IMG/VR virus record: IMGVR_UViG_3300008261_000005
Origin: a virus
Length of the DNA: 64,000 bases
Direction: 5' to 3' (one strand)
Positions within the stretch are counted from its first letter, which is position 1. Each line of letters opens with the position of its first letter. A program made the translations under genes and the position numbers. The notes under the pieces were generated by a model. It saw only the letters and a list, made by a program, of their open reading frames with translations. It had not been told where the DNA came from and searched no databases. Positions 2,994 through 19,642 of the stretch are shown here, one piece after another.

Positions 2994-3658
2994 TGAAAGT
3001 TAAATTAATATCATCAAGTAAAGCCAGTAGAGAAATGGTAAATGAAGGTATTTACGATGCACAAGAGCTTATTGCCTTTTGTGCAAGAGTAAGTAACCCA
3101 GCTAATCAATTCAATACAGAAACTAGTGAGAAATTAATCAACTATCTAATCAAGCATCAACATTGGAGTCCGCTCGAAATGGTAAGTGCTTGTTTAGAAA
3201 TTGAAACCACACGTGATATTGCAAGGCAAATTTTAAGACACCGTAGTTTTAGTTTCCAAGAGTTCAGTCAACGCTATGCGGATCCTACTAAAGACTTGGA
3301 CTTTGTCATACGTGAGGCACGTCTGCAAGATACAACAAATCGTCAAAATTCTGTTGTAACTGATGACGTTGAATTGCAAGCGTGGTGGGATGCCAAGCAA
3401 AAGTTTATTATTGAAACTGTTAAACAAACATACGCAGAAGCTATTTCTAAAGGTATTGCTAAAGAACAGGCTCGTGCTATTTTACCAGAAGGTAATACAG
3501 TAAGTCGCTTGTACATGAACGGTACTTTGCGTAGTTGGATTCACTTTATTGAATTGCGAAGTGCAAACGGCACACAGTTAGAACATCAGCTGGTTGCTCG
3601 CGAGTGCGGACGAGTCATTGCAGAAGTGTTTCCAATGGCATCAAACCATATTAATTAG
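2993..3658 (+). CDS. thyX: Flavin-dependent thymidylate synthase
   Basis: ThyX signature RHRSFSFQEFSQRY, plus H-W-S-P-L-E, EQARAILP and LRSWIHFIELRS...Q.EH. Confidence 0.95.
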   Translation: MKVKLISSSKASREMVNEGIYDAQELIAFCARVSNPANQFNTETSEKLINYLIKHQHWSPLEMVSACLEIETTRDIARQILRHRSFSFQEFSQRYADPTKDLDFVIREARLQDTTNRQNSVVTDDVELQAWWDAKQKFIIETVKQTYAEAISKGIAKEQARAILPEGNTVSRLYMNGTLRSWIHFIELRSANGTQLEHQLVARECGRVIAEVFPMASNHIN

Positions 3659-4830
3659 TTGTAAGAGTTATCGCCGGGCCACAGAGGCAACTTTGTTCCC
3701 GGCGACCTTTTGGGTATTTTACTGTCAGCACTACTTACACAACTAGAAGTAATGCATGATTTAGGACCATCAAATAAGTTAAATCCAGTTTCAATATTGC
3801 CTAATGGAGCGTCATGACAACTATAGCTACGTTTGATACTGCCGTCAGGTTCACGTATAATAATACTACGGTATCCGCTTGAACATTCCCAATCTTTAAA
3901 TTTATTAAAGTTAAATGCATTAAATCGTTCAGCTTGATCCATGTACCAAACTTTTTTATTTTTGTCCACAAACTCTACTTGAAAGTGTTGCGGGATAGTA
4001 TCTTGTGAATATATAGGATCTGGAACTTTCTTAAATGTGGGTTCTGGTCTAACTACTAACTTAGCTTCTGCTGCCTTTGCTTCTGTATAGCCACGTTGCG
4101 GCATTCCGTTGTGTAATACTTTAAGCATTTCTGGAGTATACCCATCAACTACACGACTAGCAGTGGGATCACTTTGAGGCTTTAATGTTACATTAATTCC
4201 ACGATTGTGAAAGTATAATGCGTTCTCATAATCTTTATCAAACCATTCAGGAACCATTACCATGTTAATAGTTACTTGAACATCATGTTGCTGACATAAT
4301 TCTAATTTATCAGCAAACTCACTCATTTTTTCTTTAGTATTAACGTGTTCAGTATGCAGGCTAGCAGTGATACTTGCTCTATGAAATTTACTAACTGCCT
4401 TACAATATTCATCTCGATGCCATGCTAAACTACGACTCATATTCGTTGTCATATGTACACTAGTATAGTTTGTGTTTTCTGAATCATTGTTTAAGTGATT
4501 CAAAATGTCAATATAACCAGGATGAAACGTGGGTTCGCCGCCACTTAAACTAAAATGGAAACTATTAAATCCTCGGTCACGAGCTTGACGTTTAATCTCG
4601 TCAACAGTCTTTAAACACAGCTCAGTTGGTCTATGATCTTTTTTATCGCTTCGTGCGTAAGGCCAGCAGTAACTACACTTATAATTACAGAATCTGCCTA
4701 ACAGCCAACTTACTGTGAATAAGTCTCTATAAAGCATTGTACGTTGTCCAACACGTACTATATCGTCATAGGGTATTTGTGTAAAGTCGTATGCAGATGT
4801 TTTTAAATCACTCATTAAGATTGAATCCAC
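3655..4830 (-). CDS. Radical SAM protein with C-terminal Cys-rich (twitch/SPASM-like) region
   Basis: CNYKCSYC, SGGEPT, TTN; C-terminal WECSSG...SC...C...C. Confidence 0.9.
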   Translation of the reverse strand: MDSILMSDLKTSAYDFTQIPYDDIVRVGQRTMLYRDLFTVSWLLGRFCNYKCSYCWPYARSDKKDHRPTELCLKTVDEIKRQARDRGFNSFHFSLSGGEPTFHPGYIDILNHLNNDSENTNYTSVHMTTNMSRSLAWHRDEYCKAVSKFHRASITASLHTEHVNTKEKMSEFADKLELCQQHDVQVTINMVMVPEWFDKDYENALYFHNRGINVTLKPQSDPTASRVVDGYTPEMLKVLHNGMPQRGYTEAKAAEAKLVVRPEPTFKKVPDPIYSQDTIPQHFQVEFVDKNKKVWYMDQAERFNAFNFNKFKDWECSSGYRSIIIREPDGSIKRSYSCHDAPLGNIETGFNLFDGPKSCITSSCVSSADSKIPKRSPGTKLPLWPGDNSYN

Positions 4831-5279
4831 ATAACTTTGGGTTTTGTTTCTACAGCATTTTCAAACACTTTCATGTCAACGTGTCTAGCCATAACAGCTT
4901 CATATTTGCTTTTATCAGAACTTTTGGGAGCGCATAGTCCACAACCACAAGTGTGTTTGGGACATATAATTGTTGGCATTGTACCAGCTTTTAAATGCTC
5001 TTCTAATTCTTTTAGAATTTTGTCGCCTTCGCTTAACTTACCAATTGGTCCGCGGGTTTGACCAAATTGTGCTTGGCATGTTTGATGATGGAATACACTA
5101 TCAGTTTGTTGTTCAATGTGCATAAAGAACCAATTGACGCTACAATGCCAACCTTTAAATTCTCTAAAATCTACAAACTTGCTTTTTCTATCAACACCAT
5201 CTTGACTTAGACACATGGTTCTACTACCACAGCACGGTCTACCTATTTTTAGACCCAATTCTTTCTTTTCTTCACTCAT
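4815..5279 (-). CDS. Stand-alone Cys-rich SPASM/twitch-like domain; apparent C-terminal half of the upstream radical SAM
   Basis: PCC, FKGWHCSVN, HQTC, CPKHTCGCGLC. Parallels the C-terminus of 3655..4830 (FKDWECSSG). ATGA overlap with 5276..5986. Confidence 0.7.
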   Translation of the reverse strand: MSEEKKELGLKIGRPCCGSRTMCLSQDGVDRKSKFVDFREFKGWHCSVNWFFMHIEQQTDSVFHHQTCQAQFGQTRGPIGKLSEGDKILKELEEHLKAGTMPTIICPKHTCGCGLCAPKSSDKSKYEAVMARHVDMKVFENAVETKPKVMWIQS

Positions 5280-5986
5280 GCTGCTTGTACCTTTTTAGTG
5301 TTATTTGACCAATAATCTTTCATCCACTGTAACTGTTCTTCAGTGTATTGATGTGCAAAATTGCTTTTACTGTCTGGTTCTTCGCCAATAATACGTGGAA
5401 CATATTTTATATCGTTGTCATCTAAAAATTCACATAGCTCAACACATTCGTCAAAGTATGCGGCATGAAACATCACATTGATACTGATACTACATTTATT
5501 AGCAGGGCCTTCTTTATGAAACTGAACCATACGATCTCTGACTTGTTGTTTAAGTGTGTCATCAGCCTCTGCATGGTAACTAACTGTTATGTGTCCAAAA
5601 TTTTCCATAACTTTCTGAGCCATTTTTTTACTCATTGCCCCATTGCTAGTAAGAGCAAAATTACACTCGTACTTGTCTTTATATTTGGTCTCGTATGCTT
5701 CTTTGAGGTACTTGGCAAAGGCAATAAAATTTGGATTTACTGTTGGTTCACCGCCAGTAAAACTAACACTTGCCCTCTTGTAATCTCTATAGGTCATGTA
5801 CAAATTTACATACTCCAACATAAAATCTGCATTTTTGATTAATTCTTCTAACGTGGCATGTGGGCTAAAATTGTCATGCCTATGAGCTGGACAATAACTG
5901 CAATCGTAATTACAGCGTCGACCAATATCCCAAGTTACTTGGAATACATTGCCATCAAGCAAATCAACTGTATCAAAACTAGCCAT
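5276..5986 (-). CDS. Radical SAM core domain (truncated relative to its paralogue)
   Basis: WDIGRRCNYDCSYC, FTGGEPT, TSNG; closely parallels WLLGRFCNYKCSYC of 3655..4830. Confidence 0.9.
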   Translation of the reverse strand: MASFDTVDLLDGNVFQVTWDIGRRCNYDCSYCPAHRHDNFSPHATLEELIKNADFMLEYVNLYMTYRDYKRASVSFTGGEPTVNPNFIAFAKYLKEAYETKYKDKYECNFALTSNGAMSKKMAQKVMENFGHITVSYHAEADDTLKQQVRDRMVQFHKEGPANKCSISINVMFHAAYFDECVELCEFLDDNDIKYVPRIIGEEPDSKSNFAHQYTEEQLQWMKDYWSNNTKKVQAA

Positions 5987-7284
5987 TAAATATAATCCTT
6001 AAACTTTGGTTCTACATCGCACAAATTTTCTTGACGAATATTGTCTAATTGCTGTGTGTATTTTATAAATTCATTCCAGTGTGTATCATAATAATTATCG
6101 CTGTTCATATAACTTGTTACGCCTTTAGAAATATCTTCTGCTTGTTTAATTACATGCGCAGGATAATTATTATCTTTTACCCATTGAACAAACTCAACAA
6201 ACTTAACAGTGACATCTTTTTTGTATTGTTCTGGAAGGACACGTACATTTAAATGTTTTGGATGATGTGCAACATGATGTGTGATAATTGGGCGTTTTTG
6301 TGTGAAGTTTATTTTCTTTAAACCGCTTTCTGTTAATTTCCATTTCATAAAATCAATCATATGATTAACATTATACGCTGTTACTGTGAACGCAAGCCAA
6401 CCAAAAATATTATCTGGCAATTGATCAACCTTGTGTAAATTATCTAGTGTCTTTTGCCACTTAGCAGGATGTCGTTGATATTCTTGCATTGCACCCATAC
6501 CATCAACACTTGCACCAACACGAACTTGTTTAAAACTTTTCCATAAATTTGTAACACGAGTAGGAAGTGTACTCATGTTGGTATTGTACTCAATAATAAT
6601 ATGTTTTGCAGCATCTTTTTCAACACAACGTTCTAAGAAATCATAATGACGTTCAATTAGCATGGGTTCACCTCCCGCAAAATATACGTGTTGGATATTA
6701 TGTATGTTTGCCTCAAGTTGTTCCCAAAATGGTTCGTATTCTGGCCAGTCAAAAGCTGGAACATTCCCGTCAACAATTTCCATTATTCCGCCAGTATCTT
6801 TAAATTTATTACTGCCAGTTAACTTAATCCAATCATCGTACCATGCATTACTATCTGTTGGGCCGCACATACGACATTTTAAATTACAAAAATTTCCAAA
6901 TCTTAAATCATAATAAACTACAGGAAAGGTTTCAGTGGATATACTACCATCTTCAGCAGTTTTACTACGTGCTTCGTCGATAGTTAACTTCCATTGTTCA
7001 TTTTCGTATGTGCGTCTGCTAACTAACCCACTTGTTTCTTCGTTTTTACATCGTCCACATTCTTCGTTCCACACACCATTTAACATATTAAGACGAATTG
7101 TTTTCATCATACTGTTGTTACGTGCAAGGTCTAAATTATCTTTGCCAGCGTTAAATGCAGTGCCATCATCCTTGCGTATTACACCTTGATTTTTAGTCAC
7201 ATTTGCTTGACAACAAACTCGCATATCACCGTTTGCACGAATAGCTTGGAAGTTCCAAGGGATTGGGCAAAATGTATTACTCAT
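5986..7284 (-). CDS. Radical SAM protein with N-terminal SPASM/twitch-like domain
   Basis: N-terminal FCPIPW...RVCC...ECGRC; core DLRFGNFCNLKCRMC, YFAGGEP, YNTN. Confidence 0.9.
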   Translation of the reverse strand: MSNTFCPIPWNFQAIRANGDMRVCCQANVTKNQGVIRKDDGTAFNAGKDNLDLARNNSMMKTIRLNMLNGVWNEECGRCKNEETSGLVSRRTYENEQWKLTIDEARSKTAEDGSISTETFPVVYYDLRFGNFCNLKCRMCGPTDSNAWYDDWIKLTGSNKFKDTGGIMEIVDGNVPAFDWPEYEPFWEQLEANIHNIQHVYFAGGEPMLIERHYDFLERCVEKDAAKHIIIEYNTNMSTLPTRVTNLWKSFKQVRVGASVDGMGAMQEYQRHPAKWQKTLDNLHKVDQLPDNIFGWLAFTVTAYNVNHMIDFMKWKLTESGLKKINFTQKRPIITHHVAHHPKHLNVRVLPEQYKKDVTVKFVEFVQWVKDNNYPAHVIKQAEDISKGVTSYMNSDNYYDTHWNEFIKYTQQLDNIRQENLCDVEPKFKDYI

Positions 7285-8138
7285 TTAGGTATCCTAGCTA
7301 CCATGTCAGGAATTTCTGTTTCTGCCCAGGAACGTTCTTGACACCAAAAACACTTGCCACAAGTTGGAACATAAATTCCTGGCTTATAATCTATAAGGCT
7401 TGGGAAAGTCTGACTAACAATTGCATCAGATAAATCGCCCTCGCAACTACGTGTAGTTTCATATAAATCTACAATTTTAAACAAGTAATATTGTGCAAGT
7501 ATCCAGGATTTGTCAACTAACAAAAATGGTAAGAATATGTGAGATCCATTTCTTTTTAAAATTAGTAGAGGTTCTTTTTTATCAGTGTCAATTCGACGTG
7601 CTGGCGGTTCACCGTCAATTGTATAGCTTAACGGATTGTGAGTAGTTGCATTAAATATAGCATCAAATTTATATTTGAAAATACAATATGAATTAAATTC
7701 ATCAATTTGAATTTGATCACCAGCTCGTAGCACACCTTTAGACATAATAATTTTACCCATTGCACCATCTTCAATTCCTGGAGCAATAAAATTAGTATGA
7801 CGATTTTCAATTACATCAGGAAACATTGATTTTAATTTATTAAAAACTTCTTCCGATATAGGTTCTTGCCAAGGTCTAGTATCCCAACAACGTATATGCG
7901 TGATAACATCTATTTTACAATCTAGTTTATTATCTTGAATAATTTTACATAACAAGAATGTGAGACAAGCACTATCTGCTCCACCTGATAAATTCACTCC
8001 AATTTTTTTCCAAGAAGTAGAAACTGGGATATCTAATCCGTTAATACGGTGTAATTCTAATTTTGGTAATTCACCACCGTACATTGCTTTGTACTGTGAT
8101 TTCATTTTGTTATACAAACTATTACTAAATTCAAACAT
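7281..8138 (-). CDS. QueC-like PP-loop ATPase (adenylation/amidation-type enzyme)
   Basis: PP-loop NLSGGADS and a C-terminal TRSCEG...CGKCFWCQER Zn-type motif as in QueC/ExsB. Confidence 0.7.
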   Translation of the reverse strand: MFEFSNSLYNKMKSQYKAMYGGELPKLELHRINGLDIPVSTSWKKIGVNLSGGADSACLTFLLCKIIQDNKLDCKIDVITHIRCWDTRPWQEPISEEVFNKLKSMFPDVIENRHTNFIAPGIEDGAMGKIIMSKGVLRAGDQIQIDEFNSYCIFKYKFDAIFNATTHNPLSYTIDGEPPARRIDTDKKEPLLILKRNGSHIFLPFLLVDKSWILAQYYLFKIVDLYETTRSCEGDLSDAIVSQTFPSLIDYKPGIYVPTCGKCFWCQERSWAETEIPDMVARIPK

Positions 8139-9549
8139 TAAAGATCTCCTTCATTTCTGGGAAAGTTTCTGCAAAGCTAATGCCACGCTGTGCATCACAT
8201 AAATCTAAAAATTCTTTCATTTCTGGAAGTCTAATGGTCCAATCTTCGCTTTCCATAAATTTTAACATACCGTCTAATCGACTAATACCATAACTAGCAT
8301 TGCGCCATTGCTCGTAAGTCACTTTACCCTTGTGCCATTCTGGTACACCTTTTTCCCAATTAGCTTCCCACCATGGATAAAATTCTTCGTACTTCTTGCG
8401 GCATTCTTCTTTAAACCATTTAGGCAAAACTTTTACATTCAAGTGAGGTGGATGATAAACAAAATGATAATTTACTCCACCAGCGCCAAATGGCCACATA
8501 TTAATTTTCTTAAAACCTTGTTCTAATTTCCATTTAATAAAATCAGGTATGTAGTAGATATTTAGAGCTTGGACTGCACACGCAACCGTAACTTCTGTAT
8601 TGCTTGGTGTTTGTGTATCTAAAATATGAAATACTTCAGCAGTCCTTGACCACTTGCTAGGATAACGAATGTAATCATTCATTTCCTCAATACTGTCTAC
8701 ACTATAATGAAAACGCACAAGTTTAAATTGTTTCCACAAATCAAACAAGTCATCTCTCCATTCTACACCGTTACTGTTATAACGCAATTCTAAATTTTTT
8801 GCATGTCCTTGACGAATACACTCTTCCAAAATTTCATAGTGTTCTTCAATAATTAAACTCTCCCCGCCTGCAAAATACAACTGTTGCATATTAGGAATTT
8901 GTTCATAAAACTGCTGCCAGAATATAGGATTATTTTTATGCCAGTTATAACTGCTACCATTTGTACTACCTTTATTTGACCACAACGTAGTTTGTTTTAA
9001 TGTTGAATTTTTAATCTTTGGATGTATTGCTTGCCAATCTTTAATCCATCCACTACTATCATGAGGACTGCACATTACACATGCTAACTGACATTTTGTT
9101 CCAAATCGCAAATCAATATAATTGAGTTTAGGAGGAACAGAACCATCTTCAGCAGTGTCGGCTACCAGTTGATTTAAATCTGTACGTTCCATCCAATATG
9201 CAGTTTCCCACATACGTTTGCTATTATGTCCAGCTGCTTCTTCTTTGTAACATTTAATACAACTAGGAGGTTGTTCGCCGTTAAGCATTTGCTTACGGAC
9301 ATTGCGCATATAGGTGCTGTTCCAACTTGATTGAAAATCGCTAACATTTAGATTAGCAGGTTTGCCTTCTTCTGTTTTTAGAATTCCAACCATACCCCCA
9401 TGTTGTTTGTCGTTGGTTGGACCAACACTACTTGCATTGGCCGTACAGCATACTCGCATACTTCCATCTGGACGTGTACTTAAATGCACCCACGGCAAAA
9501 TGCAAAAAGTTTCTGATGGAAGTTTAGTTGTTGGCTTAGGTGTTGTCAT
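8131..9549 (-). CDS. Radical SAM protein with N-terminal SPASM/twitch-like domain (paralogue of 5986..7284)
   Basis: FCILPW...RVCC...SCIKC; DLRFGTKCQLACVMC; YFAGGE; YNSN. Confidence 0.9.
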   Translation of the reverse strand: MTTPKPTTKLPSETFCILPWVHLSTRPDGSMRVCCTANASSVGPTNDKQHGGMVGILKTEEGKPANLNVSDFQSSWNSTYMRNVRKQMLNGEQPPSCIKCYKEEAAGHNSKRMWETAYWMERTDLNQLVADTAEDGSVPPKLNYIDLRFGTKCQLACVMCSPHDSSGWIKDWQAIHPKIKNSTLKQTTLWSNKGSTNGSSYNWHKNNPIFWQQFYEQIPNMQQLYFAGGESLIIEEHYEILEECIRQGHAKNLELRYNSNGVEWRDDLFDLWKQFKLVRFHYSVDSIEEMNDYIRYPSKWSRTAEVFHILDTQTPSNTEVTVACAVQALNIYYIPDFIKWKLEQGFKKINMWPFGAGGVNYHFVYHPPHLNVKVLPKWFKEECRKKYEEFYPWWEANWEKGVPEWHKGKVTYEQWRNASYGISRLDGMLKFMESEDWTIRLPEMKEFLDLCDAQRGISFAETFPEMKEIFNV

Positions 9550-10666
9550 TTATAAATTTAATCTCGTTTTGATATGCTTTGTTATTGCCGCATGTTCTTA
9601 TACATTTTTCAATATGCATTTTATGTGAAGGATCCCAACTTGCTTCAAGTAGACTAGAAAACCACTCATGCGCCAGTATATCATCAATACTGTTATTAAC
9701 TAGGCTATTCCATCCTGGTTTGAAGTCTTTAGTTAGTTTTAAAAAGTCATCTCTATGAGTATGGGCCAATTGCCATAGGAAACAACACGGCCACATGGTC
9801 AAGTCTGATGCTATAAAAATTTCACCTTCATGTACTAATTTACAAACTATAGAATCTAAAATTCTTTTTTTCGTTGATTCATCATTTACTACATTTCCAG
9901 TAGACTTTCCTATTATTGGAACAAATCCTGTAGATGTAGAATATGTATTAATAAACTGTTGTAATTCCTTAACTTGTTCTATTTTACTATGAGCTTTATC
10001 ACTTGCTGTTGTAATAACAAAATCTTCTTTTATTGTTTTTTTAGTTGTTGAGTCTTTTTTAGGCAACTTAGCAACCCAGTCATTAATAGTGTTGCGAATA
10101 CCTGTTCTAGTAGCAAATTTAAAACCTAATCTACTAGCAGCCTGTCGTGCAATTTCTAATTCGTGTTCGTTATGATCAAACACAATAAACATCCAAGTAG
10201 CTGATGCAAATCCTTTTCCGCCCATAGCATATGCAGTCATATTTCGTTCAATAACATCAAAAACGGTATTGACTCGATAGATATGATTGGTTTCTTTGTG
10301 CCCGTCAACTGCAAATACTACATTAATTAGTTTAGTTTTAGAACTAATTTCCCCTAGTTCTTTCCACCATGCTACTGTTTGATAACCACCGTTAGTACTT
10401 ATTTGACAATAGCCGTTATGATCTGTTAGATATTTTACCATATCTAACATTTCAGGATGTACAACTGGATCTCCTAAAACTCCACAAAATTTAAATTGCT
10501 TCTTGGATATTTCTTTACTAGTTGGAAATAATCGTTTAATATCATTCAATGAAAAAGATTGAATTGTTAGTAGTTCAGGCATTCGTGTGCGTGTACAACC
10601 TGGACAGGCAGCATTACAATCGCTTGTAATTTCTAACTCGATCTTTTTGATATTATCAATGTTCAT
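9536..10666 (-). CDS. Radical SAM protein
   Basis: LEITSDCNAACPGC, GVLGDP, STNGG, FAVDG; C-terminal PCC...C..TC. Confidence 0.9.
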   Translation of the reverse strand: MNIDNIKKIELEITSDCNAACPGCTRTRMPELLTIQSFSLNDIKRLFPTSKEISKKQFKFCGVLGDPVVHPEMLDMVKYLTDHNGYCQISTNGGYQTVAWWKELGEISSKTKLINVVFAVDGHKETNHIYRVNTVFDVIERNMTAYAMGGKGFASATWMFIVFDHNEHELEIARQAASRLGFKFATRTGIRNTINDWVAKLPKKDSTTKKTIKEDFVITTASDKAHSKIEQVKELQQFINTYSTSTGFVPIIGKSTGNVVNDESTKKRILDSIVCKLVHEGEIFIASDLTMWPCCFLWQLAHTHRDDFLKLTKDFKPGWNSLVNNSIDDILAHEWFSSLLEASWDPSHKMHIEKCIRTCGNNKAYQNEIKFINDNT

Positions 10667-11826
10667 TTAAACTGTTCCGCAAAGGCATCATATTTACCAC
10701 AGGTCTTAGCACATACAGATAATTTTCCTTCCGCACAACTGGGCTTGTTCCAGCTATCTGGTATAATCTTTTGAAAATATAGACCGTCTACAATATTCTC
10801 TAGAGTATTGATTTTAGCATTAATACTGTCTTTTCCAACTTGATTTATTGCGTCCCAGATTTGTGTTCCTTCAGAACTATGATACCAAACATACATTTGA
10901 CCCGCTGTCCAGCAACAAGGTTGAATAATTCCTTCTGCGCTCACATACACACTTTTTTCTTCAGAAACTTTACAGGTTATGTTTGAAGAATCTAAACTTA
11001 ATTCCATTTTAGACTTTTTAGCAGGATCTAAATTAAAACGCTGTGGAGTTTGGATTGCTGTTGCTTCAATTTGTTTAGAAGGAATATACTTAACAGTTTC
11101 CTGTTTGCCTAAAACATCACTTAGTTTATCCAACACCCCATTTCTGTATTTAGGATTAGTCGGTGCTTGTAATAAAGTTGTTGCACCTTTACGATTGGCT
11201 GCTTGATGCACTTCTTTTGTAACCCCGCTAGTATTACTAAAGAATCTAGCAGACTTTTTAAACTGGAATTTTTCAAAGCCCATTACACGACTTAGTTCTT
11301 CAGCAGTTTCAACTTGATGTTCATTGTGTGCAAAAACAATATAATCCCATCTTGCTCTGCCACCAGCATCAATAAATGCTTGTGCATTTTCTACTATCTT
11401 AGACCATACTGTATTTTGTCTGTATAAATGATTTGTGTCTTCTAATCCATCAATACTGAATACAACGTATGCGTTCTTACCTAACACCCTTGCTAAGTTT
11501 GCCCACCACTCAGGCTTTTTAGCACTGCCGTTTGTATACATTGTAAGATTCATTTTAGGATTGTGTTCTCTAAAATATGCAAACACTTCTAATGTATCTT
11601 TGGCCGCAACTGGATCCCCAAAATTACCGCACATATACATTCTATCTAACTGTGAAATAAATTCAGGTTTAAAAATAGTCTTGCAGTCATCCAAACTTAA
11701 TTCATTGTCTTTGAGATGTGGATTATCTTCACCGCCATTAATATTCCTTGCACACATAGGGCAAGCGGCATTACATGCTTCTGTAATTTCTAAATGAACT
11801 GTTTTTAAATCTGAATATCTATACAT
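10663..11826 (-). CDS. Radical SAM protein (paralogue of 9536..10666)
   Basis: LEITEACNAACPMC, GNFGDP, YTNGS, FSIDG; C-terminal PCC...C..TCG. Confidence 0.9.
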   Translation of the reverse strand: MYRYSDLKTVHLEITEACNAACPMCARNINGGEDNPHLKDNELSLDDCKTIFKPEFISQLDRMYMCGNFGDPVAAKDTLEVFAYFREHNPKMNLTMYTNGSAKKPEWWANLARVLGKNAYVVFSIDGLEDTNHLYRQNTVWSKIVENAQAFIDAGGRARWDYIVFAHNEHQVETAEELSRVMGFEKFQFKKSARFFSNTSGVTKEVHQAANRKGATTLLQAPTNPKYRNGVLDKLSDVLGKQETVKYIPSKQIEATAIQTPQRFNLDPAKKSKMELSLDSSNITCKVSEEKSVYVSAEGIIQPCCWTAGQMYVWYHSSEGTQIWDAINQVGKDSINAKINTLENIVDGLYFQKIIPDSWNKPSCAEGKLSVCAKTCGKYDAFAEQFK

Positions 11827-12053
11827 TAAATGTCCATTAATAATCTTATATCTTTTCCAGGACCTACTTTACTAGGCATATCACCGTGTTGTTGGACATA
11901 CCATTGTATTACGGCTTTGTACCAATTTTGACTATTATGATGTGCTTCTTTATTAAACTTATGAATATTGTTACTTGTTGCTTCAAACGTAGATAAGGCT
12001 CTTGCTGCCTCTACTTGTAACGTTCTCAAATCCAATTCATCTAAGTCTATCAT
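11826..12053 (-). CDS. Small hypothetical protein in the modification operon
   Basis: 75-aa ORF overlapping both neighbours in the operon. Confidence 0.7.
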   Translation of the reverse strand: MIDLDELDLRTLQVEAARALSTFEATSNNIHKFNKEAHHNSQNWYKAVIQWYVQQHGDMPSKVGPGKDIRLLMDI

Positions 12054-12901
12054 GGTCTTCCAATAAGCATATAACGCTTATACCCTGTTAATTGTAACAC
12101 ACCTTCATACAAAAGTCTAGTCATTGGAAACTTTTTCTTCATTTCTCCCATGCTGTGTATTGAATTGATATGATCTTCAACTTCATGTAAGTTATTACTT
12201 TGAATGACAAATAATGGATCCGTTTCTAAAGGTCGATTAACAAACTTATGATACCAATCTTCGTGAAAATGTTCTGCGCTAGTATTCACAATTAAATCAG
12301 GCGTAGTTTTTTCGTTAATTTCTTGACCAGTAGTATAATTTTTTATTTTATACTGACAACCTGTTCGATATAGCCAGCTCATATCTGTTAAGTCTAATTC
12401 TACAGACTTAACTTGATAGTTATTAATAAAATCTATATTAAAGATCTTATCACTAATTTCACATGCATTAGGATCAATATCAACAATTCTCATCTTATCA
12501 TAAGAGATGTTGGCTATATCAAAAAACTTACGTAATTGTCCGTACCAGCCAGCTAATAAAAATACAACTTTGAAATCTTTTTGTATTTTTGCCAACTCCG
12601 TAACTAACCAAATTTTACTTTGTACTTGGCCCCTACTAAATGCGTCTTGTAATGCAACTGGGTTATGCCCTTCTCTATAATACTTGTGGAATGTATCTAA
12701 AATTTCATTAGGAGCATATTTACGCAATGTATTAATAAACTCAACTATCCCAGCACCGTCATTAAATTTTATAATAGGATTGTCTGCATAAATCATATGC
12801 ATTAGAAAATCTACATATTTTTTTGACTCTTGATCATTGGCAAACGCAAAATAGTCTTCCAATCCATGTAGCCAACTAATATTATCAGTATTATTTTCCA
12901 T
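12050..12901 (-). CDS. Class I SAM-dependent methyltransferase-like protein
   Basis: Gly motif VFLLAGWYG, acidic strand end IVDIDP, and DLIVNTSAEH, consistent with a Rossmann MTase fold. Confidence 0.6.
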   Translation of the reverse strand: MENNTDNISWLHGLEDYFAFANDQESKKYVDFLMHMIYADNPIIKFNDGAGIVEFINTLRKYAPNEILDTFHKYYREGHNPVALQDAFSRGQVQSKIWLVTELAKIQKDFKVVFLLAGWYGQLRKFFDIANISYDKMRIVDIDPNACEISDKIFNIDFINNYQVKSVELDLTDMSWLYRTGCQYKIKNYTTGQEINEKTTPDLIVNTSAEHFHEDWYHKFVNRPLETDPLFVIQSNNLHEVEDHINSIHSMGEMKKKFPMTRLLYEGVLQLTGYKRYMLIGRP

Positions 12902-13580
12902 TACATTCCTTATTAAATTGTTCAGCTAGCCAATCAAAGTCATTGATTAATTTTAATGCTGTCATGTCGCCTTTATTTGCAATACCGTATCTGGTTCCTG
13001 CCTTTGCGCCAGCTAATGCATATTTTCCATATGGTTTGTCTGCGCCCACTGTACACCACGCCTGTAATCTAACATCAGTTTCTTCTGATTTTTGTCTATC
13101 AATTACTTTACTAGATAATTTAACGCATTCTCTAAACGCACTTTTCCAAGTATTAAACTCATCAGTGTTAAAAGCAGTCACATTACTAATTACAGGCACT
13201 GCTTTAAAATGCTTACTAATACTAGTTGTCATATCTGGCTTGCTAGTATCCATATTAATTGTATCCAATCTAGGCAGAAGTTTTACTCCACCGTTCCCAT
13301 ATTCTAAATAGTTTACAGGGTTTAAACTTCTCCATACGTGTACAGTTTCTAGCCCACGAGATTCTAGTTTATAATCAAAATCAAAACTATCTAACACTTC
13401 TGCATCACCATCAACCACCCAAATCATTTTTGTAAAACATTTTTTAGCTGCAATGATATGAGCATTGTGTATCCCTTTAACTCCATGAACACGTTTTGTC
13501 ATAGGAAATCGATTTTTTAATTTTAGCCAGTTTGATTCTGCGTTTGGTTCGTTATAACTGATAAAGACGATATCAAACAT
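12891..13580 (-). CDS. GT-A-fold glycosyltransferase-like protein
   Basis: DIVFISYNEP start, KRVHGV.G...AH, DxD-type VDGD. Confidence 0.65.
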   Translation of the reverse strand: MFDIVFISYNEPNAESNWLKLKNRFPMTKRVHGVKGIHNAHIIAAKKCFTKMIWVVDGDAEVLDSFDFDYKLESRGLETVHVWRSLNPVNYLEYGNGGVKLLPRLDTINMDTSKPDMTTSISKHFKAVPVISNVTAFNTDEFNTWKSAFRECVKLSSKVIDRQKSEETDVRLQAWCTVGADKPYGKYALAGAKAGTRYGIANKGDMTALKLINDFDWLAEQFNKECNGK

Positions 13581-14494
13581 TACTTGCTCACTATAAATTT
13601 ATTGGGCATTCTAGGTGGATTAACATACATGGATTTAAATAGTTTACTTTGTTCGGCAGTAAACATATCTGCCATTTCTAATTCTAATTCGTGTACGAGA
13701 GTTTCTCCAATTCCCATAATTTCATAAGGTAACATTTTATCAGTTACTTTTCCATCATTGTTTTCCCAGTAATTGTTTAACCATTTAAAGTCACGTACAT
13801 TAACATAATCCCAATCTGTACAATTAGTCATGTAGCAACCTTGTCTAGCACCATATATTGCCCAAATGCCATTAGGCACATCTGCACCTATGTGCATCCA
13901 GACCATCAAACGTTGAAAATTCTTCCAGTGAACTTGCTTAACAATATTATCAGCTTTAGATCCCTCAAGCAATCCCATTTTGACACCTTCACGAAAGCCC
14001 GCACGCCAGGCTTGCTGTGGGCTTGCATTATTATGCACGTCACTCATGCATTGTTCCATTTGAATGTAATTAATATCCCAACAAAAATCCACTTGGGTCT
14101 TAGCATTATCACTTTCCGCAGCCTCGTGGGTCTTCATATCTAATACTAATTGCGTGGGCCAACACTTAATACCACCATTACCATATATCAATCCGTTAAT
14201 AACATTTTGTGCGCCCCAACTAATAACACTTTTATCAAGTTCAACGTCATCTTTAAATTCTATAACCTGTTCTAAAAATTCTGGACGTACAATATTGTCC
14301 CCGTCAATCACAATTAATCTTGGAGTACTACACAATCTAGCACAGGCCTTATGTGCTGCATCACTGCCCTCTACCCCGTGTACACGTTTAGCCCAAGGAA
14401 CTTTTTTTAACAAGTCTGCGTAATTTTTTTCAGCGTTAGGCTCATCATAACTTAGATATACGATATCACAGTCTATTACTTTTAATGTACTCAT
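13580..14494 (-). CDS. GT-A-fold glycosyltransferase-like protein (paralogue of 12891..13580)
   Basis: DIVYLSYDEP, KRVHGV.G...AH, IDGD, GNGG.K, W...FREGVK are all shared with the neighbour. Confidence 0.65.
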   Translation of the reverse strand: MSTLKVIDCDIVYLSYDEPNAEKNYADLLKKVPWAKRVHGVEGSDAAHKACARLCSTPRLIVIDGDNIVRPEFLEQVIEFKDDVELDKSVISWGAQNVINGLIYGNGGIKCWPTQLVLDMKTHEAAESDNAKTQVDFCWDINYIQMEQCMSDVHNNASPQQAWRAGFREGVKMGLLEGSKADNIVKQVHWKNFQRLMVWMHIGADVPNGIWAIYGARQGCYMTNCTDWDYVNVRDFKWLNNYWENNDGKVTDKMLPYEIMGIGETLVHELELEMADMFTAEQSKLFKSMYVNPPRMPNKFIVSK

Positions 14495-15078
14495 GCTACT
14501 AACAACCCATAAGATTTAAAATAACCAAAAGTTGAAATGGTAAAAGAATCAATATCTTCTTCTAAACTGGATTTAAAATGTAACTTATTTCCGTCTTTTA
14601 TATTGGAAACTTGTATGGTAATTGTTTTAAGCAAGTAATGGGGGTCTTTTACTGTAGTTAAATAAAAATCAAAAGTTGTAGATGGATTAATTTTAGATAT
14701 CATAACTTTAGCATCATCACTTAATAATATTTCCCAACGTTTTTGCTTTTTTTTATGAATGATTGTAAAATCTGTAATACCCTTATCAGTCACTCGAGGG
14801 ATTTCATAAATCAATGCACTGGATATTTTAATAGACTCGTCTTTAGTCTGTAATGCATTATCAAATTTAAAATAATCAATATTATATCGACAGTAATCTT
14901 TTTTTCCGCTTAAAAAATCATGCAATCTAGACTTTGGCACTTCTAAGTATCCACCAGTACTGGGTAAATTAGAAATGCCTGTAATAGTTCCAGCTTCGTC
15001 ATGCCAAACATACATTGTTTTAGGTATTTCTGACACTGCTTCTGCTTGTAAAATTTCTTGTAATGTAAGTGTATCCAT
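14491..15078 (-). CDS. Hypothetical protein in the modification operon
   Basis: 195-aa ORF coupled to its neighbours. Confidence 0.7.
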   Translation of the reverse strand: MDTLTLQEILQAEAVSEIPKTMYVWHDEAGTITGISNLPSTGGYLEVPKSRLHDFLSGKKDYCRYNIDYFKFDNALQTKDESIKISSALIYEIPRVTDKGITDFTIIHKKKQKRWEILLSDDAKVMISKINPSTTFDFYLTTVKDPHYLLKTITIQVSNIKDGNKLHFKSSLEEDIDSFTISTFGYFKSYGLLVA

Positions 15079-15079
15079 A

Positions 15080-15901
15080 TTAATATCTCAATGTGTTAAT
15101 AATGTTATTTGTCAAAAAGTCATCCTCAGTGTAATGAAATACACCAGTTTGTAAAAAATTACCAATTTTTAACTGTTTATCTTGATTAAAACTAATACCT
15201 ATTTGATTTATCCAAGACGAAGGGGGACTGTCCCACCCCTGAATTGCTGGCTTCATGTGTACAAACGATGGAGAAACTTTAGATGTCATTTCGTGTTCTG
15301 TTTCCATAAACACTAACGCAAGTGCCGCATTGACATCCATACTACAAAATCTTTGTTTTGTATTAGGTAAGAATTTATCGTAAAATTGTTCCCAATTTTT
15401 AGTAATAACTTCTAACCATTTATAAAATTCGTATCCTTGCACTGACTTCTTAAAATAATGAACTCCAGTATATACATTAGGTAGGTTATTTGCAGTAAAA
15501 GTTTTTCTGTAATAATCATCACTAATTTCTCTACCTTTATAATCTTTTACACACGAAGTAAGACATATTGATTTGTTTTTAAGAAATTCCCACCAATGAT
15601 CATTCGATGTTAATAACAGCATGTCAGTATCATATATCAAACTTTCTTTAAACGGTGTTATATGTGCAATTTTCCACCTGTTTTCAACTTTCCATGTTTT
15701 TTCTTTAGCATCATCACCCCACGGTATATCTAATATGTGGTCAAATGTGTGTCTGTAATCATCAGGCACTGTATCATTTGTAATTAAACAAGTCTGATTA
15801 TGCTGTTTATTATTCAATTTGATAGATAGTGCAAGAGCATAGGCTTGTGTTACATAGTTTACGTTTGAGTTTTGAGCTAGGAATACATGACCTTTAGACA
15901 T
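15080..15901 (-). CDS. GT8/nucleotide-diphospho-sugar transferase-like protein
   Basis: PFKESLIYDTDML (DxD), NVYTGVHYF, late FVHMK motif. Confidence 0.65.
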   Translation of the reverse strand: MSKGHVFLAQNSNVNYVTQAYALALSIKLNNKQHNQTCLITNDTVPDDYRHTFDHILDIPWGDDAKEKTWKVENRWKIAHITPFKESLIYDTDMLLLTSNDHWWEFLKNKSICLTSCVKDYKGREISDDYYRKTFTANNLPNVYTGVHYFKKSVQGYEFYKWLEVITKNWEQFYDKFLPNTKQRFCSMDVNAALALVFMETEHEMTSKVSPSFVHMKPAIQGWDSPPSSWINQIGISFNQDKQLKIGNFLQTGVFHYTEDDFLTNNIINTLRY

Positions 15902-16736
15902 TTCGTATAACCCTCAATAAGCTCTGTTTATTCATAACATGTACGTCTAAAGAATTGGTACTAATTGCAGTGTATTGATCTACTGTATTTTCTTTATTAA
16001 CTAGCAATGTCATTTTGTTATCAGTTGCGCTAATTAAAATGTCTCTGTCTAGGATATAGCTCAATTTATTAGCAATAGGCATGGCAAAATCACCACTAGT
16101 AAATCCGTTCATCATATGAATAGCAATGCTAAACGCAATATCATTGCGGTAACGTGTACTTGGTACTCTATACAATTTAGCATAGTATACCCAATTATCT
16201 TTAATGTGTTCAATTAAAGTGAAAAAATGTTCAGTTGTTGAATTTTTCCTAAAGAAAAATACAGTAGCCCAATAAAAAGGTATGCTAAACTGATTAATAT
16301 AATCAAACTCGCTGGTATTTCTCCACGATGCTAGATCATTATATTTGTTATATATTAAGAAATTATGATTTTGATCCCAGCAATATTCAAGAAATGATGA
16401 ATTAATTATAAAATCACTATCTATTACTAGTGTTTCATCATAAGGACTTAGGTAGAAACAATTTGCTCTGTTAGAATTTTTCCATACTAGGTTAGAATAA
16501 CTATCAGCGCCATCATAAAATTTTTTAACTTGCGTGGTTGTGTCAACAGATTCAATGATCTTATCAAATACATCTACATCGTTGGGGAAAGTCTTATATA
16601 GCCATTCAGAACTATCAGTTACTAGACTAACTGGTTTATTTAAAAAACGTTTTACCCGTTTGGCTGCATATATCGACAACTCCACATAGTCAACTTCAGA
16701 ATTATTAAAGGCAAATATTAATACACCTTGTGTCAT
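15894..16736 (-). CDS. GT8/nucleotide-diphospho-sugar transferase-like protein (paralogue of 15080..15901)
   Basis: SPYDETLVIDSDF (DxD), YWATVFFF, RND.AFS.A, HVMNK. Confidence 0.65.
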   Translation of the reverse strand: MTQGVLIFAFNNSEVDYVELSIYAAKRVKRFLNKPVSLVTDSSEWLYKTFPNDVDVFDKIIESVDTTTQVKKFYDGADSYSNLVWKNSNRANCFYLSPYDETLVIDSDFIINSSFLEYCWDQNHNFLIYNKYNDLASWRNTSEFDYINQFSIPFYWATVFFFRKNSTTEHFFTLIEHIKDNWVYYAKLYRVPSTRYRNDIAFSIAIHMMNGFTSGDFAMPIANKLSYILDRDILISATDNKMTLLVNKENTVDQYTAISTNSLDVHVMNKQSLLRVIRNV

Positions 16737-17080
16737 AAATCTAACAAACTCTCAACTGATCTACTATTTTTGATTTTTTGATATTGGGTTTGATAACTGT
16801 TTGTCGCAGATGCATACACTGACAATATGCTGTCTAAAAATTCTGTTAGTGAGGGGATGTCTACTGGAAGATTATTGTCATCAAGAATGACTGAATCAGT
16901 ATGCTCAAGATCAATTAAAGTTTTTACAAAATTAATTAATTCTCTAGTGACTTTGAATGTTGCGCCGTTAAAAAAATAAACGCAATTTTGTTGATATTCT
17001 TCGTAAATTACCTTTTTTTGATTGGCCAACGTTGTTACAAAATTGGCAATTTCAAAGGCTTTTAATAGCTTGTCGTCCAT
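16733..17080 (-). CDS. Hypothetical protein, first gene of the modification operon
   Basis: 115-aa ORF with strong CAGGAGG RBS. Confidence 0.8.
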   Translation of the reverse strand: MDDKLLKAFEIANFVTTLANQKKVIYEEYQQNCVYFFNGATFKVTRELINFVKTLIDLEHTDSVILDDNNLPVDIPSLTEFLDSILSVYASATNSYQTQYQKIKNSRSVESLLDL

Positions 17081-17099
17081 ACGGACCTCCTGAACAATA

Positions 17100-17128
17100 A
17101 TTATACTATCTTATAATTATCGTGTCAA
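17100..17128 (-). promoter_or_regulatory. Consensus sigma70-type promoter driving the glycosyltransferase/radical SAM operon
   Basis: On the - strand: TTGACA (17128-17123), 17 nt, TATAAT (17105-17100), then RBS CAGGAGG and ATG 17080. Confidence 0.85.
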
Positions 17129-19617: not shown

Positions 19618-19634
19618 TCCTCACCCCTTTTGTA

Positions 19635-19641
19635 TATTTAT
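19635..19641 (-). promoter_or_regulatory. Late promoter ATAAATA
   Basis: Located in the short gap upstream of ATG 19617; matches the motif recurring before other structural genes. Confidence 0.55.
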
Positions 19642-19642
19642 G

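Follow-up and report, generated by a model that had tools for sequence, protein, structure and literature searches.

A fibre-adjacent operon of glycosyltransferase-like and radical SAM proteins in a T4-like jumbo myovirus, a probable pathway for glycan building and tailoring

Introduction

In antibiotic biosynthesis, radical SAM enzymes such as the twitch/SPASM-type BtrN and BlsE and the B12-dependent GenK-type methylases act on sugars or sugar nucleotides beside glycosyltransferases; BtrN and BlsE serve pathways to aminoglycoside and nucleoside antibiotics. Cassettes of GT8 and radical SAM genes adjoining the fibre genes of marine T4-like phages have already been published: the host recognition cluster of pelagimyophages and cyanomyophages, a hypervariable region, comprises tail fibres along with GT8 and radical SAM cassettes gained or lost between close relatives, and was proposed, from the annotation level only, to modify the host O-chain (PMC7029224). 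Virus-encoded glycosylation of virions is represented by the capsid and tail-tube glycans of mycobacteriophages, as cited in PMC12619734 (Freeman et al., 2023). Moraphages, large phages from aquatic metagenomes, harbor four putative near-core glycosyltransferases and were placed outside the T4 group (PMC12619734). Glycans on phage DNA can be complex as well, and the arabinosyl-5hoC DNA glycosyltransferases of DLP3, RB69, and RL38J1 match the structures of BshA and sucrose-phosphate synthase (PMC13326640).

Here, an operon is described from the IMG/VR virus record IMGVR_UViG_3300008261_000005, of which a stretch of 64,000 nt (the window) was analysed. The carrier is an uncultured T4-like jumbo myovirus of roughly 350-380 kb. 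With a probability of about 0.6, the locus is a modular operon for glycan building and radical SAM-mediated glycan tailoring. The initial annotation had named no characterised pathway with this enzyme combination, which holds except that the GT8/radical SAM fibre cassettes had been published before (PMC7029224).

Organization and conserved core of the operon

The operon consists of 16 ORFs, all on the minus strand, running from position 17080 to 3655. They overlap or abut as initially annotated, with 15 junctions spanning -16 to +1 nt, of which 14 are overlaps and one is a gap of a single nt. The adjoining tail-fibre genes are likewise confirmed, as the genes immediately upstream, both here and in RsoM2USA, encode fibre, giant, and baseplate proteins. 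The latter is a culturable Ralstonia phage. At the far end, thyX (2993-3658) is convergent with orf16, the last operon gene, and folE is located 7.2 kb before the window. None of the 16 operon proteins shows a hydrophobic stretch of transmembrane strength, and no nucleotide-sugar synthesis gene is found within the window’s own operon.

Relatives of orf05 occur in at least 595 IMG/VR stretches, and every one of the 80 fetched loci that is complete on the 5’ side displays the identical gene order; the cluster is therefore far beyond chance. The order orf01-05 is invariant in the IMG/VR loci complete there and in RsoM2USA (ORF354-350), and the position behind the fibre genes is strict across relatives at 30-40% identity. 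Whereas orf01-05 form a fixed core, the genes behind it represent a fast-changing array, and the number of radical SAM genes in the 10 kb that follow orf05 ranges from 0 to 6 among 41 distinct architectures. The core content comprises four soluble GT-A proteins (two GT8-like, two GT2-like) together with two small proteins without a family; in the array of this phage, a Rossmann SAM-enzyme-like protein, a 75-aa protein, three radical SAM paralogue pairs, and a PP-loop ATPase are found.

The two small proteins are encoded by orf01 (16733-17080, 115 aa) and orf04 (14491-15078, 195 aa). The former is the invariant first core gene, present in all loci complete at that side and in RsoM2USA (ORF354). 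Its nearest named cluster in the Atlas is DUF4376 (0.90), an assignment that hmmscan did not confirm in 25 members. The product of orf04 combines an N-domain with an Ig-like beta-sandwich (AF2 pLDDT 86; best structural neighbours at Z≤4.1). It occupies the fastest-evolving core slot and is replaced by proteins of 314-453 aa in some relatives.

Glycosyltransferase-like proteins

The assignment of four DxD proteins as GT-A-like is supported for both pairs. The paralogues orf02 (15894-16736, 280 aa, DSD) and orf03 (15080-15901, 273 aa, DTD and HMKP) encode GT8-like GT-A glycosyltransferases, and their joint profile A2 matches glycogenin (GT8) in the PDB with E 1e-6 over the DxD half. D91/D93 of orf03 are invariant across relatives, and the protein shares 37.6% identity with ORF352 of RsoM2USA.

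A GT2-like GT-A domain (residues ~2-156; SYDEPN, DGD) followed by a helical C-domain is encoded by orf05 (13580-14494, 304 aa). D64/D66 are invariant across relatives, as are W163, F167, R168, and E169 of the C-domain. The sequence has no Pfam and no PDB sequence match. Its AF2 model (pLDDT 89) matches GT-A enzymes in the Foldseek comparison proposed earlier (PBCV-1 A64R, TarS, WrtF, and SunS, E about 1e-4) and in VIA (Z 10.6-8), where nucleotidyltransferases score nearly as high (Z 8.8 against 10.6). The paralogue orf06 (12891-13580, 229 aa, DGD) is 34% identical to orf05 (alignment A1) and 44% identical to ORF348 of RsoM2USA. The GT-A fold of orf05 and orf06 is common to nucleotidyltransferases. 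In loci L049-L051 and L056, the orf05-like ORF is lengthened to 869 and 547 aa and orf06 is not called as a gene of its own, pointing to a putative orf05-orf06 fusion.

Radical SAM enzymes and further array proteins

All six radical SAM enzymes named initially carry their quoted CxxxCxxC motifs and match Pfam Radical_SAM, five of them above the gathering score. They form three paralogue pairs: SPASM-like orf09/10, N-twitch NF033640 orf11/13, and orf14+15/orf16. In the first pair, orf09 (10663-11826, 387 aa, CNAACPMC; PF04055 34.8 bits) possesses a C-terminal Cys-rich, SPASM-like part, and its paralogue orf10 (9536-10666, 376 aa, CNAACPGC; 27% identity, E 1e-39) stays below the gathering score (25.3 bits). 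The N-terminal-twitch proteins orf11 (8131-9549, 472 aa, CQLACVMC) and orf13 (5986-7284, 432 aa, CNLKCRMC) are 34% identical to each other and span positions 1-398 of the NF033640 model (412 and 382 bits, respectively, cut-off 170), with an N-terminal Cys-rich domain (C16, C34/35, C97, C100) preceding the CxxxCxxC core. For orf11, 4559 homologues were found, and the best 120 of these 4559 are all at least 80% identical. NF033640 is a catalogue entry only; no reaction, substrate, or dedicated paper was found for it in the literature. In the third pair, orf14 (5276-5986, 236 aa, CNYDCSYC; PF04055 46.6 bits) is a radical SAM core without auxiliary domain that aligns to residues 32-237 of orf16 (3655-4830, 391 aa, CNYKCSYC; PF04055 60.2 bits), which carries a C-terminal Cys-rich domain. 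A weak match to residues 298-349 of orf16 (E 0.001) marks the Cys-rich orf15 (4815-5279, 154 aa, nine Cys) as a putative detached counterpart of that domain. The ATGA-coupled orf14/orf15 split also occurs in L015, L016, and L032.

The PP-loop ATPase orf12 (7281-8138, 285 aa) ends in a C...CxxCxxC motif. It had been called QueC-like; its SGGxDS motif (SGGADS) is indeed invariant, but Pfam QueC gives no match at E≤10, and PDB matches cover the PP-loop only, the best being asparagine synthetase (E 0.02). None of its 656 homologues has a Pfam domain. The putative methyltransferase, orf07 (12050-12901, 283 aa), is conserved with ORF347 of RsoM2USA and looks like a Rossmann-type SAM enzyme (AGWYG ... 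DIDP); with Spermine_synth at E 0.0014, which is below the cut-off, and MJ0882 at E 0.078, it can be termed only weakly methyltransferase-like.

The small helical protein orf08 (11826-12053, 75 aa) belongs to no family and is the best-conserved operon protein (mean column identity 74%). It accompanies orf09 in 16 and adjoins orf07 in 14 of the 17 architectures that contain it. This would fit a peptide-derived product instead of a glycoconjugate, whereby the SPASM-type orf09/10 would process orf08 as a substrate peptide or scaffold, in the manner of PQQ or mycofactocin. Models of the peptide maturases MftC (mycofactocin), PqqE, and PapB match orf09, orf10, and orf16, and the orf05 model, taken at full length, aligns over 199 residues with SunS, a peptide S-glycosyltransferase (Z 8.6). 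However, the maturase matches, including those of SPASM maturase models to orf09, are partial, far below the cut-offs, and restricted to the radical SAM core; orf08 itself is devoid of Cys, present in 17 of 41 architectures, and missing from minimal operons. As a small-molecule variant, an aminoglycoside- or nucleoside-like compound might act on the host or on competitors. The twitch radical SAMs BtrN and BlsE provide precedents, and the BlsE model (TIGR04466) matches orf09, orf10, and orf13, weakly, far below the cut-off, and over the common core only. The bacterial islands described below need no phage acceptor, as would hold for such a product. Yet the part that is invariant across the clade consists of four glycosyltransferases and not of a peptide plus maturase, and the operon contains neither a transporter nor an immunity gene. 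A peptide or small-molecule product is thus considered improbable.

Relatives in phages and bacteria

In relatives, the array slot holds genes for an NDP-sugar epimerase/dehydratase, a B12-radical SAM enzyme, a UDP-Glc/GDP-Man dehydrogenase, a DegT aminotransferase, a hexapeptide acyltransferase, an FkbM methyltransferase, and a 2OG oxygenase. This gene content, which includes nucleotide-sugar enzymes, points to sugar chemistry. Bdellovibrionota contigs carry relatives of orf05, 06, 07, 09, 11, 12, 13, and 16, flanked by MoxR/DUF58, S49 peptidase, and flotillin genes; those of orf09 are 47% identical, and those of orf16 are its nearest relatives among the fetched loci (61-66% identity). The GT8 pair and fibre genes are absent from these contigs, and therefore the shared genes work without a phage fibre. 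In Pedobacter, the orf06 homologue sits among radical SAM, GT1, and GT2 genes. The dedicated multi-step pathway for a tailored glycan envisaged initially is thus supported by the four GT-A proteins, the nucleotide-sugar enzymes of relatives, and this bacterial glycosyltransferase cluster. The link to fibres is real in terms of synteny and is qualified by the fibre-less copies in Bdellovibrionota chromosomes and by the early-type promoter.

Transcription and possible targets

This promoter (17100-17128, minus strand) is of the host sigma70 type (TTGACA-17-TATAAT, 12/12 consensus match), with the RBS and start of orf01 following after ~20 nt. Of 49 distinct relatives, about 40 have a promoter scoring at least 10/12 at this position, with diverging sequence around it. 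The gene upstream (17142-18104) is preceded by a T4-type late TATAAATA box, and no terminator is predicted between this gene and the operon. Transcription would start early from the sigma70 promoter, and late expression might be achieved by read-through from the fibre genes. A late function directed purely at the virion would not call for a conserved promoter of the early type.

T4 DNA glucosyltransferases are also expressed from an early-type promoter. Accordingly, the operon might serve phage DNA hypermodification, whereby a modified base is glycosylated and elaborated by the radical SAM and PP-loop enzymes and the modified DNA is protected from restriction; the adjoining thyX, the nearby folE, and the fast turnover of tailoring genes, as in an arms race, would fit. 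However, known DNA glycosylation requires an enzyme making the acceptor base. The phage’s own contig gave no match to ThyA-family, TET/JBP, TGT, QueD, or QueC models, and the complete core-bearing relative G001 (100%) gave none to ThyA-family, TGT, or TET/JBP, the last being searched without positive control. Since this complete relative is devoid of ThyA-like, TET/JBP, and TGT genes, DNA glycosylation is unlikely, and among the targets listed initially (virion, DNA, or host surface), DNA is disfavoured. Moreover, the arabinosyl-5hoC enzymes match BshA and sucrose-phosphate synthase, both GT-B-fold enzymes, in contrast to the GT-A proteins here, and the bacterial homologues are located in glycan clusters. 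Even though complex DNA glycans are known in phages (PMC13326640), hypermodification is given hardly any weight.

The conserved promoter would also agree with remodelling of the host envelope, in which early expression changes the sugars of LPS, O-antigen, or capsule on the infected cell and thereby blocks superinfection by competitors or keeps progeny from re-adsorbing to debris, with the variable radical SAM set diversifying the altered epitope. LPS-core transferases belong to the GT8 family. Such envelope modification was proposed for pelagimyophage GT8 genes (PMC7029224), and the cellular homologues (Bdellovibrionota islands and Pedobacter glycosyltransferase cluster) and O-antigen-type amino-sugar enzymes in the array slot of relatives point in the same direction. 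The latent period of RsoM2USA, given as 270 min in PMC8504454, would leave time for such remodelling. On the other hand, the operon lacks a membrane protein, flippase, polymerase, ligase, or GtrA/B-like component, each of its 16 proteins looks soluble, and the strict post-fibre position would have no obvious reason. To our knowledge, there is no experimental case of envelope remodelling by a lytic jumbo phage. This reading is possible but doubtful.

Under the preferred reading of glycan building and tailoring, the glycosyltransferases would draw on host nucleotide sugars to build a short oligosaccharide, and the radical SAM enzymes would perform C-H chemistry on a sugar or nucleotide sugar, with C-methylation, epimerisation, dehydration, and oxidation as candidate reactions. 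The PP-loop enzyme may adenylate and amidate, or thiolate, a carboxyl/carbonyl group, e.g. of a uronic acid. Related phages would diversify the product by gaining and losing tailoring genes. As acceptor, fibre or baseplate proteins of the virion are tentatively proposed and host envelope glycans seem rather unlikely; virion fibres are slightly favoured over the host envelope.

Comparison with known systems

With the host recognition cluster (PMC7029224), the operon shares, by annotation, fibre-adjacent GT8 and radical SAM genes in T4-like myoviruses. It differs in residing in jumbo phages (383 kb when complete) and in its fixed five-gene core, own sigma70 promoter, and defined radical SAM families. 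The four-glycosyltransferase core is resembled, by description, by that of moraphages, for which radical SAM enzymes are not mentioned (PMC12619734). Soluble virus-encoded GT-A enzymes near structural genes are common to the virion glycosylation systems of mycobacteriophages, PBCV-1 (A64R), and Mimivirus (R655), and structural matches of the orf05 model include A64R (2p6w; Foldseek E 6e-4, prob 1.0; VIA Z 7.6) and R655 (9crz; VIA Z 7.3). Those systems have no radical SAM enzyme or PP-loop ligase, whereas the jumbo operon has both, and its promoter is early-type.

T4 glucosyl-hmC and RB69/DLP3 arabinosyl-5hoC systems are similar in their early multi-glycosyltransferase operons, oligosaccharide addition, and tailoring that differs between phages (PMC13326640). 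They need a ThyA homologue or another acceptor-base enzyme, whereas the core in G001 occurs without the tested families, and their glycosyltransferases match GT-B-fold structures in contrast to the GT-A enzymes of the jumbo operon. A likeness to the sugar-tailoring radical SAMs of antibiotic pathways is seen in the weak BlsE matches (orf09, 10, and 13) and in the B12-radical SAM gene of a relative’s operon; unlike these pathways, the jumbo operon has no aminocyclitol or nucleoside scaffold genes, and the auxiliary domain of orf11/13 is N-terminal, not C-terminal. Both proteins are full-length members of NF033640 (N_Twi_rSAM, NCBIfam, twitch domain-containing radical SAM protein), whose members in this clade occur as tandem arrays that diversify quickly within a glycosyltransferase operon of phages.

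Organization of the operon and its radical SAM enzymes

The operon is a real feature of this phage genome, and its reading as a glycan pathway is partly supported. Its 16 ORFs (orf01 to orf16 in transcription order) occupy positions 17080 to 3655 of the minus strand and overlap or abut each other, with junctions of -16 to +1 nt. This layout agrees with the initial annotation, which had been made from the sequence alone, and the motifs quoted there (six CxxxCxxC, four DxD, and SGGADS) were all confirmed. Paralogue pairs make up the operon (orf02/orf03, orf05/orf06, orf09/orf10, orf11/orf13, and orf14 plus orf15/orf16).

The six proposed radical SAM proteins (orf09, orf10, orf11, orf13, orf14, and orf16) were all matched by PF04055, five of them with scores of 60.2, 46.6, 37.1, 34.8, and 30.3 bits (cut-off 29.5), while orf10 stays below the cut-off (25.3 bits) yet is a clear paralogue of orf09. 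Each of the six harbors a GGE/GDP SAM-binding motif, and all PF04055 matches in the 132-kb source contig fall within the operon. Two of these enzymes, orf11 (412.4 bits) and orf13 (381.8 bits), are full-length members of NF033640 (N_Twi_rSAM; cut-off 170, model positions 1-398), whereas orf09, orf10, orf14, and orf16 are not members, scoring 27-50 bits against the same cut-off. In orf11 and orf13 a Cys-rich twitch domain is placed N-terminally, with the Pfam SPASM match ahead of the radical SAM core (residues 16-101 in orf11 and 6-80 in orf13). C16, C97, and C100 are invariant across 37 sequences in the NF033640-type alignment. No literature on NF033640 was found. The adjacent orf14 and orf15 were considered as a pseudogene or frameshift; since the ATGA-coupled two-gene form is kept at 78-90% identity in three relatives, the split is not regarded as a lesion.

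Glycosyltransferases

Two lines of evidence uphold the four DxD proteins as GT-A-like, a profile match to glycogenin for orf02/orf03 and, for the pair orf05/orf06, a structural model of orf05. A 40-sequence orf03/orf02 profile matches glycogenin-1 and -2 (E 1e-6 to 3e-5) over profile positions 3-105, and the two aspartates of the DxD motif, D91 and D93, are invariant in orf03 relatives and situated inside this glycogenin-matching half. By profile over the nucleotide-binding half, orf02 and orf03 are thus related to GT8 (glycogenin/LgtC type, GT-A, retaining); hmmscan with the single orf02 and orf03 sequences matched no glycosyltransferase Pfam family at E<=0.01.

No Pfam, NCBIfam, or PHROG family was found for orf05/orf06, and as their 34-sequence profile gave no sequence match in the PDB, the fold of orf05 was taken from structure prediction. 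The AlphaFold2 model (pLDDT 89, pTM 0.88) contains a GT-A domain. VIA alignments over residues ~2-156 place this domain next to B4GALNT1 (Z 10.6), STIV A197 (9.9), SunS (9.1), and SpsA (9.0), with a Z range to GT-A enzymes of 10.6-8, in which nucleotidyltransferases of the same fold come out near-equal to the glycosyltransferases (Z 8.8). Foldseek matched the model to PBCV-1 A64R, TarS, WrtF, and SunS with probabilities of 0.99-1.0. D64 and D66 of orf05 are invariant among its relatives, and the SYDEPN and DGD motifs of orf05/orf06 look GT2-like; the name of the orf05 cluster in the Atlas, 'Glycosyltransferase 2-like', stems from automatic naming only. As membership of a sequence family is lacking, both proteins are filed as GT-A-fold and GT2-like rather than as GT2.

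The PP-loop protein, orf07, and the small proteins

The protein orf12 belongs to the PP-loop ATP pyrophosphatase superfamily, its loop aligning to that of asparagine synthetase. The PP-loop residues S51, G52, G53, D55, and S56 do not vary among 42 sequences, and a C...CxxCxxC motif is present as well. A search of the PDB with the 42-sequence profile retrieved only the PP-loop segments of AsnB, NAD/GMP synthetases, and tRNA thiolases, with asparagine synthetase on top; QueC chains were absent at E<=10, and PF06508 (QueC) matched nothing in the 132-kb contig at the same threshold. Pfam domains were not detected in the best 120 of 656 orf12 homologues, and PHROG 1550 is matched weakly (E 0.003, C-terminal 70 residues). 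No model searched identifies orf12, designated QueC-like in the initial annotation, as QueC. A role as the QueC that completes a 7-deazaguanine pathway was likewise rejected, since the QueC, TGT, and QueD models match nothing in the contig and FolE does: a folE gene (GTP cyclohydrolase I, E 2e-41) is located at G000:C1:114720-115247 of the source contig, ~7.2 kb before the start of the window. No TGT match was obtained in the contigs of orf12-bearing relatives, which are 13-23% complete.

For orf07, described initially as a methyltransferase, the glycine-rich (AGWYG) and acidic (DIDP) motifs are present, with D143 nearly invariant, but all matches to family models stay below threshold (Spermine_synth 18.6 bits versus 22.9; MJ0882 E 0.078), so that the protein appears weakly SAM-enzyme-like.

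In the searches run, neither a family nor a convincing structural neighbor was found for orf01, orf04, and orf08. For orf01 the Atlas suggests the fibre-associated DUF4376 (0.90), yet hmmscan recovers DUF4376 in 0 of 25 members, its matches amounting to noise (e.g. CdiI_ImmP, E>=0.006); the profile search of the PDB gave chance matches only, and the assignment was dismissed. The N-terminal motif of orf04 had brought up a tail-fibre assembly chaperone, an identity resting on one Z 3.0 match (Mu fibre chaperone, 5yvq_B), which was discarded; the structural neighbors of orf04 are generic Ig-like (Z<=4.1), and neither Foldseek (E<=0.001) nor the PDB profile search matched anything. The protein orf08, without family and without Cys, is unusually conserved over its whole length and yields only repeat-driven matches to designed armadillo proteins in the PDB. 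As it co-occurs with orf07 and orf09, it is a candidate precursor peptide for a SPASM maturase.

Phage context and genes around the operon

The source contig is 38% complete (CheckV), and complete relatives with the same operon measure 382-383 kb. PHROG matches (baseplate wedge and hub, portal, gp55-like late sigma factor, SbcCD) characterize the phage as a T4-like myovirus. Upstream of the operon, baseplate genes are followed by an ORF of 4437 aa (23686-36999, minus strand), which has the baseplate wedge gene on one side and the fibre genes on the other, and by three consecutive fibre-like proteins of 493, 433, and 693 aa (18136-23025, minus strand). Parts of the large ORF match ORF361 of RsoM2USA, a cultured Ralstonia phage, at 24-30% identity; ORF361 is a virion protein of >288 kDa. 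The three fibre-like proteins have in common an N-terminal domain of ~90 aa (phrog_15511/14394), which is also found in RsoM2USA ORF355, and differ in their C-termini, with tail-collar/fibre matches in one of them. Their layout suggests interchangeable receptor-binding fibres that share a single anchor. On the other side, thyX, encoding a flavin-dependent thymidylate synthase (2993-3658, plus strand), converges on the operon, its stop and the end of orf16 having 4 nt in common. Megablast of the operon DNA against 50,697 phage records gave no match.

An invariant core and a variable slot

IMG/VR stretches with an orf05 relative number at least 595. The 80 loci that were fetched all keep the order orf01-02-03-04-05, always behind the same fibre-type gene block; fibre genes precede the operon in the window, in every IMG/VR locus that is complete on this side, and also in RsoM2USA. 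The reported proximity to tail-fibre genes is confirmed as synteny. In RsoM2USA, a myovirus of 344 kb, ORF354-350 form the core, followed by an N-twitch radical SAM protein (ORF349) and homologues of orf06 (ORF348) and orf07 (ORF347); ORF354-347 are 26-44% identical to the proteins of the window. Within the core, the orf04 slot evolves fastest.

Downstream of the core, gene content turns over fast: 41 distinct architectures were recorded, with 0-6 radical SAM genes within the first 10 kb after orf05; orf12 and orf10 each occur in 4 of them and the orf16 type in 5. The compact operon of the window is distinctive in its PP-loop ATPase, its conserved split radical SAM protein, and an orf16 type for which the closest relatives in the fetched loci are bacterial. 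Some relatives have a longer orf05-like ORF, of 869 aa (L049-L051:9983-12592) or 547 aa (L056:9986-11629), and no separate orf06 was called in them. This suggests natural orf05-orf06 fusions, the longer form with more besides, in which the similarity of the extension to orf06 is putative; such fusions would argue that the two proteins act together. Many contigs of 'bacterial MAGs' (L095, L107, L114, i.e. PBPT01000016.1 of 335 kb, and others), assigned among others to Neomarinimicrobiota, Rickettsiales, Fischerella, and Bifidobacterium, contain fibre genes and orf01-05 in phage order; most likely they derive from jumbo phages and were binned with bacterial genomes.

Relatives of orf05, orf06, orf07, orf09, orf11, orf12, orf13, and orf16 also occur on Bdellovibrionota contigs, the largest of 494 kb, in islands (L116:9983-16584 and L120:780-11867; also L115, L104, and L105) whose products share up to 66% identity with their phage counterparts (orf11 59-61%, orf16 61-66%). 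These islands are flanked by genes for MoxR/DUF58, an S49 peptidase, flotillin, and cytochrome c; L120 carries three PP-loop genes in tandem. A weaker orf06/orf07 pair is present on a Bdellovibrionales contig of 3.0 Mb. The GT8 pair and fibre genes were found in none of the Bdellovibrionota/Bdellovibrionales contigs. In unrooted trees of orf11 and orf09, bacterial and phage sequences are separated by one clean split; with two clean groups, no donor can be named between phage and Bdellovibrionota.

Transcription and the acceptor of the proposed glycan

A perfect TTGACA-17-TATAAT promoter is located directly before orf01, and ~40 of 49 distinct relatives have a promoter with at least 10 of 12 matching positions at an equal distance, in spite of divergent flanking bases. 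The upstream neighbor gene (17142-18104) is preceded by a T4-type TATAAATA box, and no terminator is predicted between this gene and orf01. Given the sigma70 promoter and this lack of a terminator, the simplest expectation is that the operon would be transcribed early and then late by read-through. Only two other strong sigma70 sites precede genes in the window, one at 268-296 (plus strand, 12/12) before the gene at 325-1503 and one at 46168-46196 (plus strand, 11/12) before the gene for the gp55-like late sigma factor at 46219; both would fit an early transcript class read by the host RNA polymerase.

An early-type sigma70 promoter also favors a remodeling of the host envelope by the operon, a candidate role to which the LPS affinity of GT8 lends further weight and which has been proposed for pelagimyophage GT8 genes in PMC7029224; it is disfavored by the lack of any membrane component, as none of the 16 operon proteins exhibits a hydrophobic stretch of transmembrane strength. 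Modification of the virion fibres is favored by the position behind the fibre genes, which is unbroken in very distant relatives and would be consistent with a fibre acceptor, and by glycosyltransferase genes adjoining structural genes, as in virus-encoded virion glycosylation clusters. Precedents for virus-encoded virion glycosylation exist in giant viruses and mycobacteriophages. The early-type promoter and the fibre-less Bdellovibrionota copies speak against an exclusive fibre role. For the virion proteins of RsoM2USA, ten SDS-PAGE bands are listed in its paper.

Glycosylation of the phage DNA, the third candidate, is disfavored. G001, a relative of 383 kb that is 100% complete and has the core, lacks a match to PF00303, PF01702, and PF12851, and the 132-kb source contig is likewise devoid of ThyA-family, TGT, and TET/JBP matches, where the TET/JBP search was run without a positive control and a divergent DpdA could escape PF01702. 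A ThyA-family gene, absent in G001, is present in G002, another relative, and in RsoM2USA. To our knowledge, characterized DNA glycosylation depends on acceptor-base enzymes of the ThyA, TET/JBP, or DpdA/TGT type. The structures matched by one published set of phage DNA glycosyltransferases belong to enzymes of the GT-B fold. These structural matches are listed in PMC13326640.

Proposed chemistry

The variable slot of relatives contains genes for an NDP-sugar epimerase/dehydratase, a B12-radical SAM enzyme, a UDP-Glc/GDP-Man dehydrogenase, a DegT-type sugar aminotransferase, a hexapeptide acyltransferase, an FkbM methyltransferase, and 2OG oxygenases. Such a set is typical of the synthesis of rare amino and uronic sugars. 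A homologue of orf06 in Pedobacter aquatilis resides among radical SAM, GT1, and GT2 genes, and on the basis of this context and of the sugar enzymes in the slot the operon is read as a sugar pathway. Of the multi-step glycan or hypermodification pathway put forward in the initial annotation, the glycan part is backed by the glycosyltransferases and the sugar enzymes of relatives, whereas DNA as its target is disfavored by G001. The radical SAM enzymes would edit the sugar or nucleotide sugar, and the PP-loop enzyme orf12 probably activates a carboxylate, e.g. for conversion of a uronic acid to a uronamide.

The most far-reaching reading, to which a probability of roughly one in four is given, is that N-twitch radical SAM enzymes and their partners perform new C-H chemistry on sugars, and that the prey-binding fibres of jumbo phages, and of Bdellovibrio-like predators, would bear a diversifying glycan code written by means of a fixed core of four glycosyltransferases and a shuffled set of radical SAM enzymes, resulting in a post-translational layer of host range that is readable from the genome. 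If the glycan reading is right, an aquatic clade of jumbo phages that is very abundant spends 13-30 kb on a glycan edited by unstudied radical chemistry, the catalogued family NF033640 obtains its first function (metagenomic homologues of orf11 alone run into the thousands), and radical SAM tailoring joins virus-encoded glycosylation. Depending on the acceptor, either tail fibres would prove to be glycosylated and so add a layer to host range, or the host surface would be remodeled early in infection. As the culturable RsoM2USA has the core and one twitch radical SAM enzyme (ORF354-347), the question is directly testable.

Comparison with known systems

The nearest published description comes from pelagimyophages, whose 'host recognition cluster' has cassettes of GT8 and radical SAM genes beside the fibres, with no mechanism given (PMC7029224). 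Four core glycosyltransferase orthogroups were described for 'moraphages', a group of large aquatic phages (PMC12619734), which by description resemble the phage studied here in their four core glycosyltransferases. Virus-encoded glycosylation is of a known kind; what is new is its union with a radical SAM array drawn from an unstudied family.
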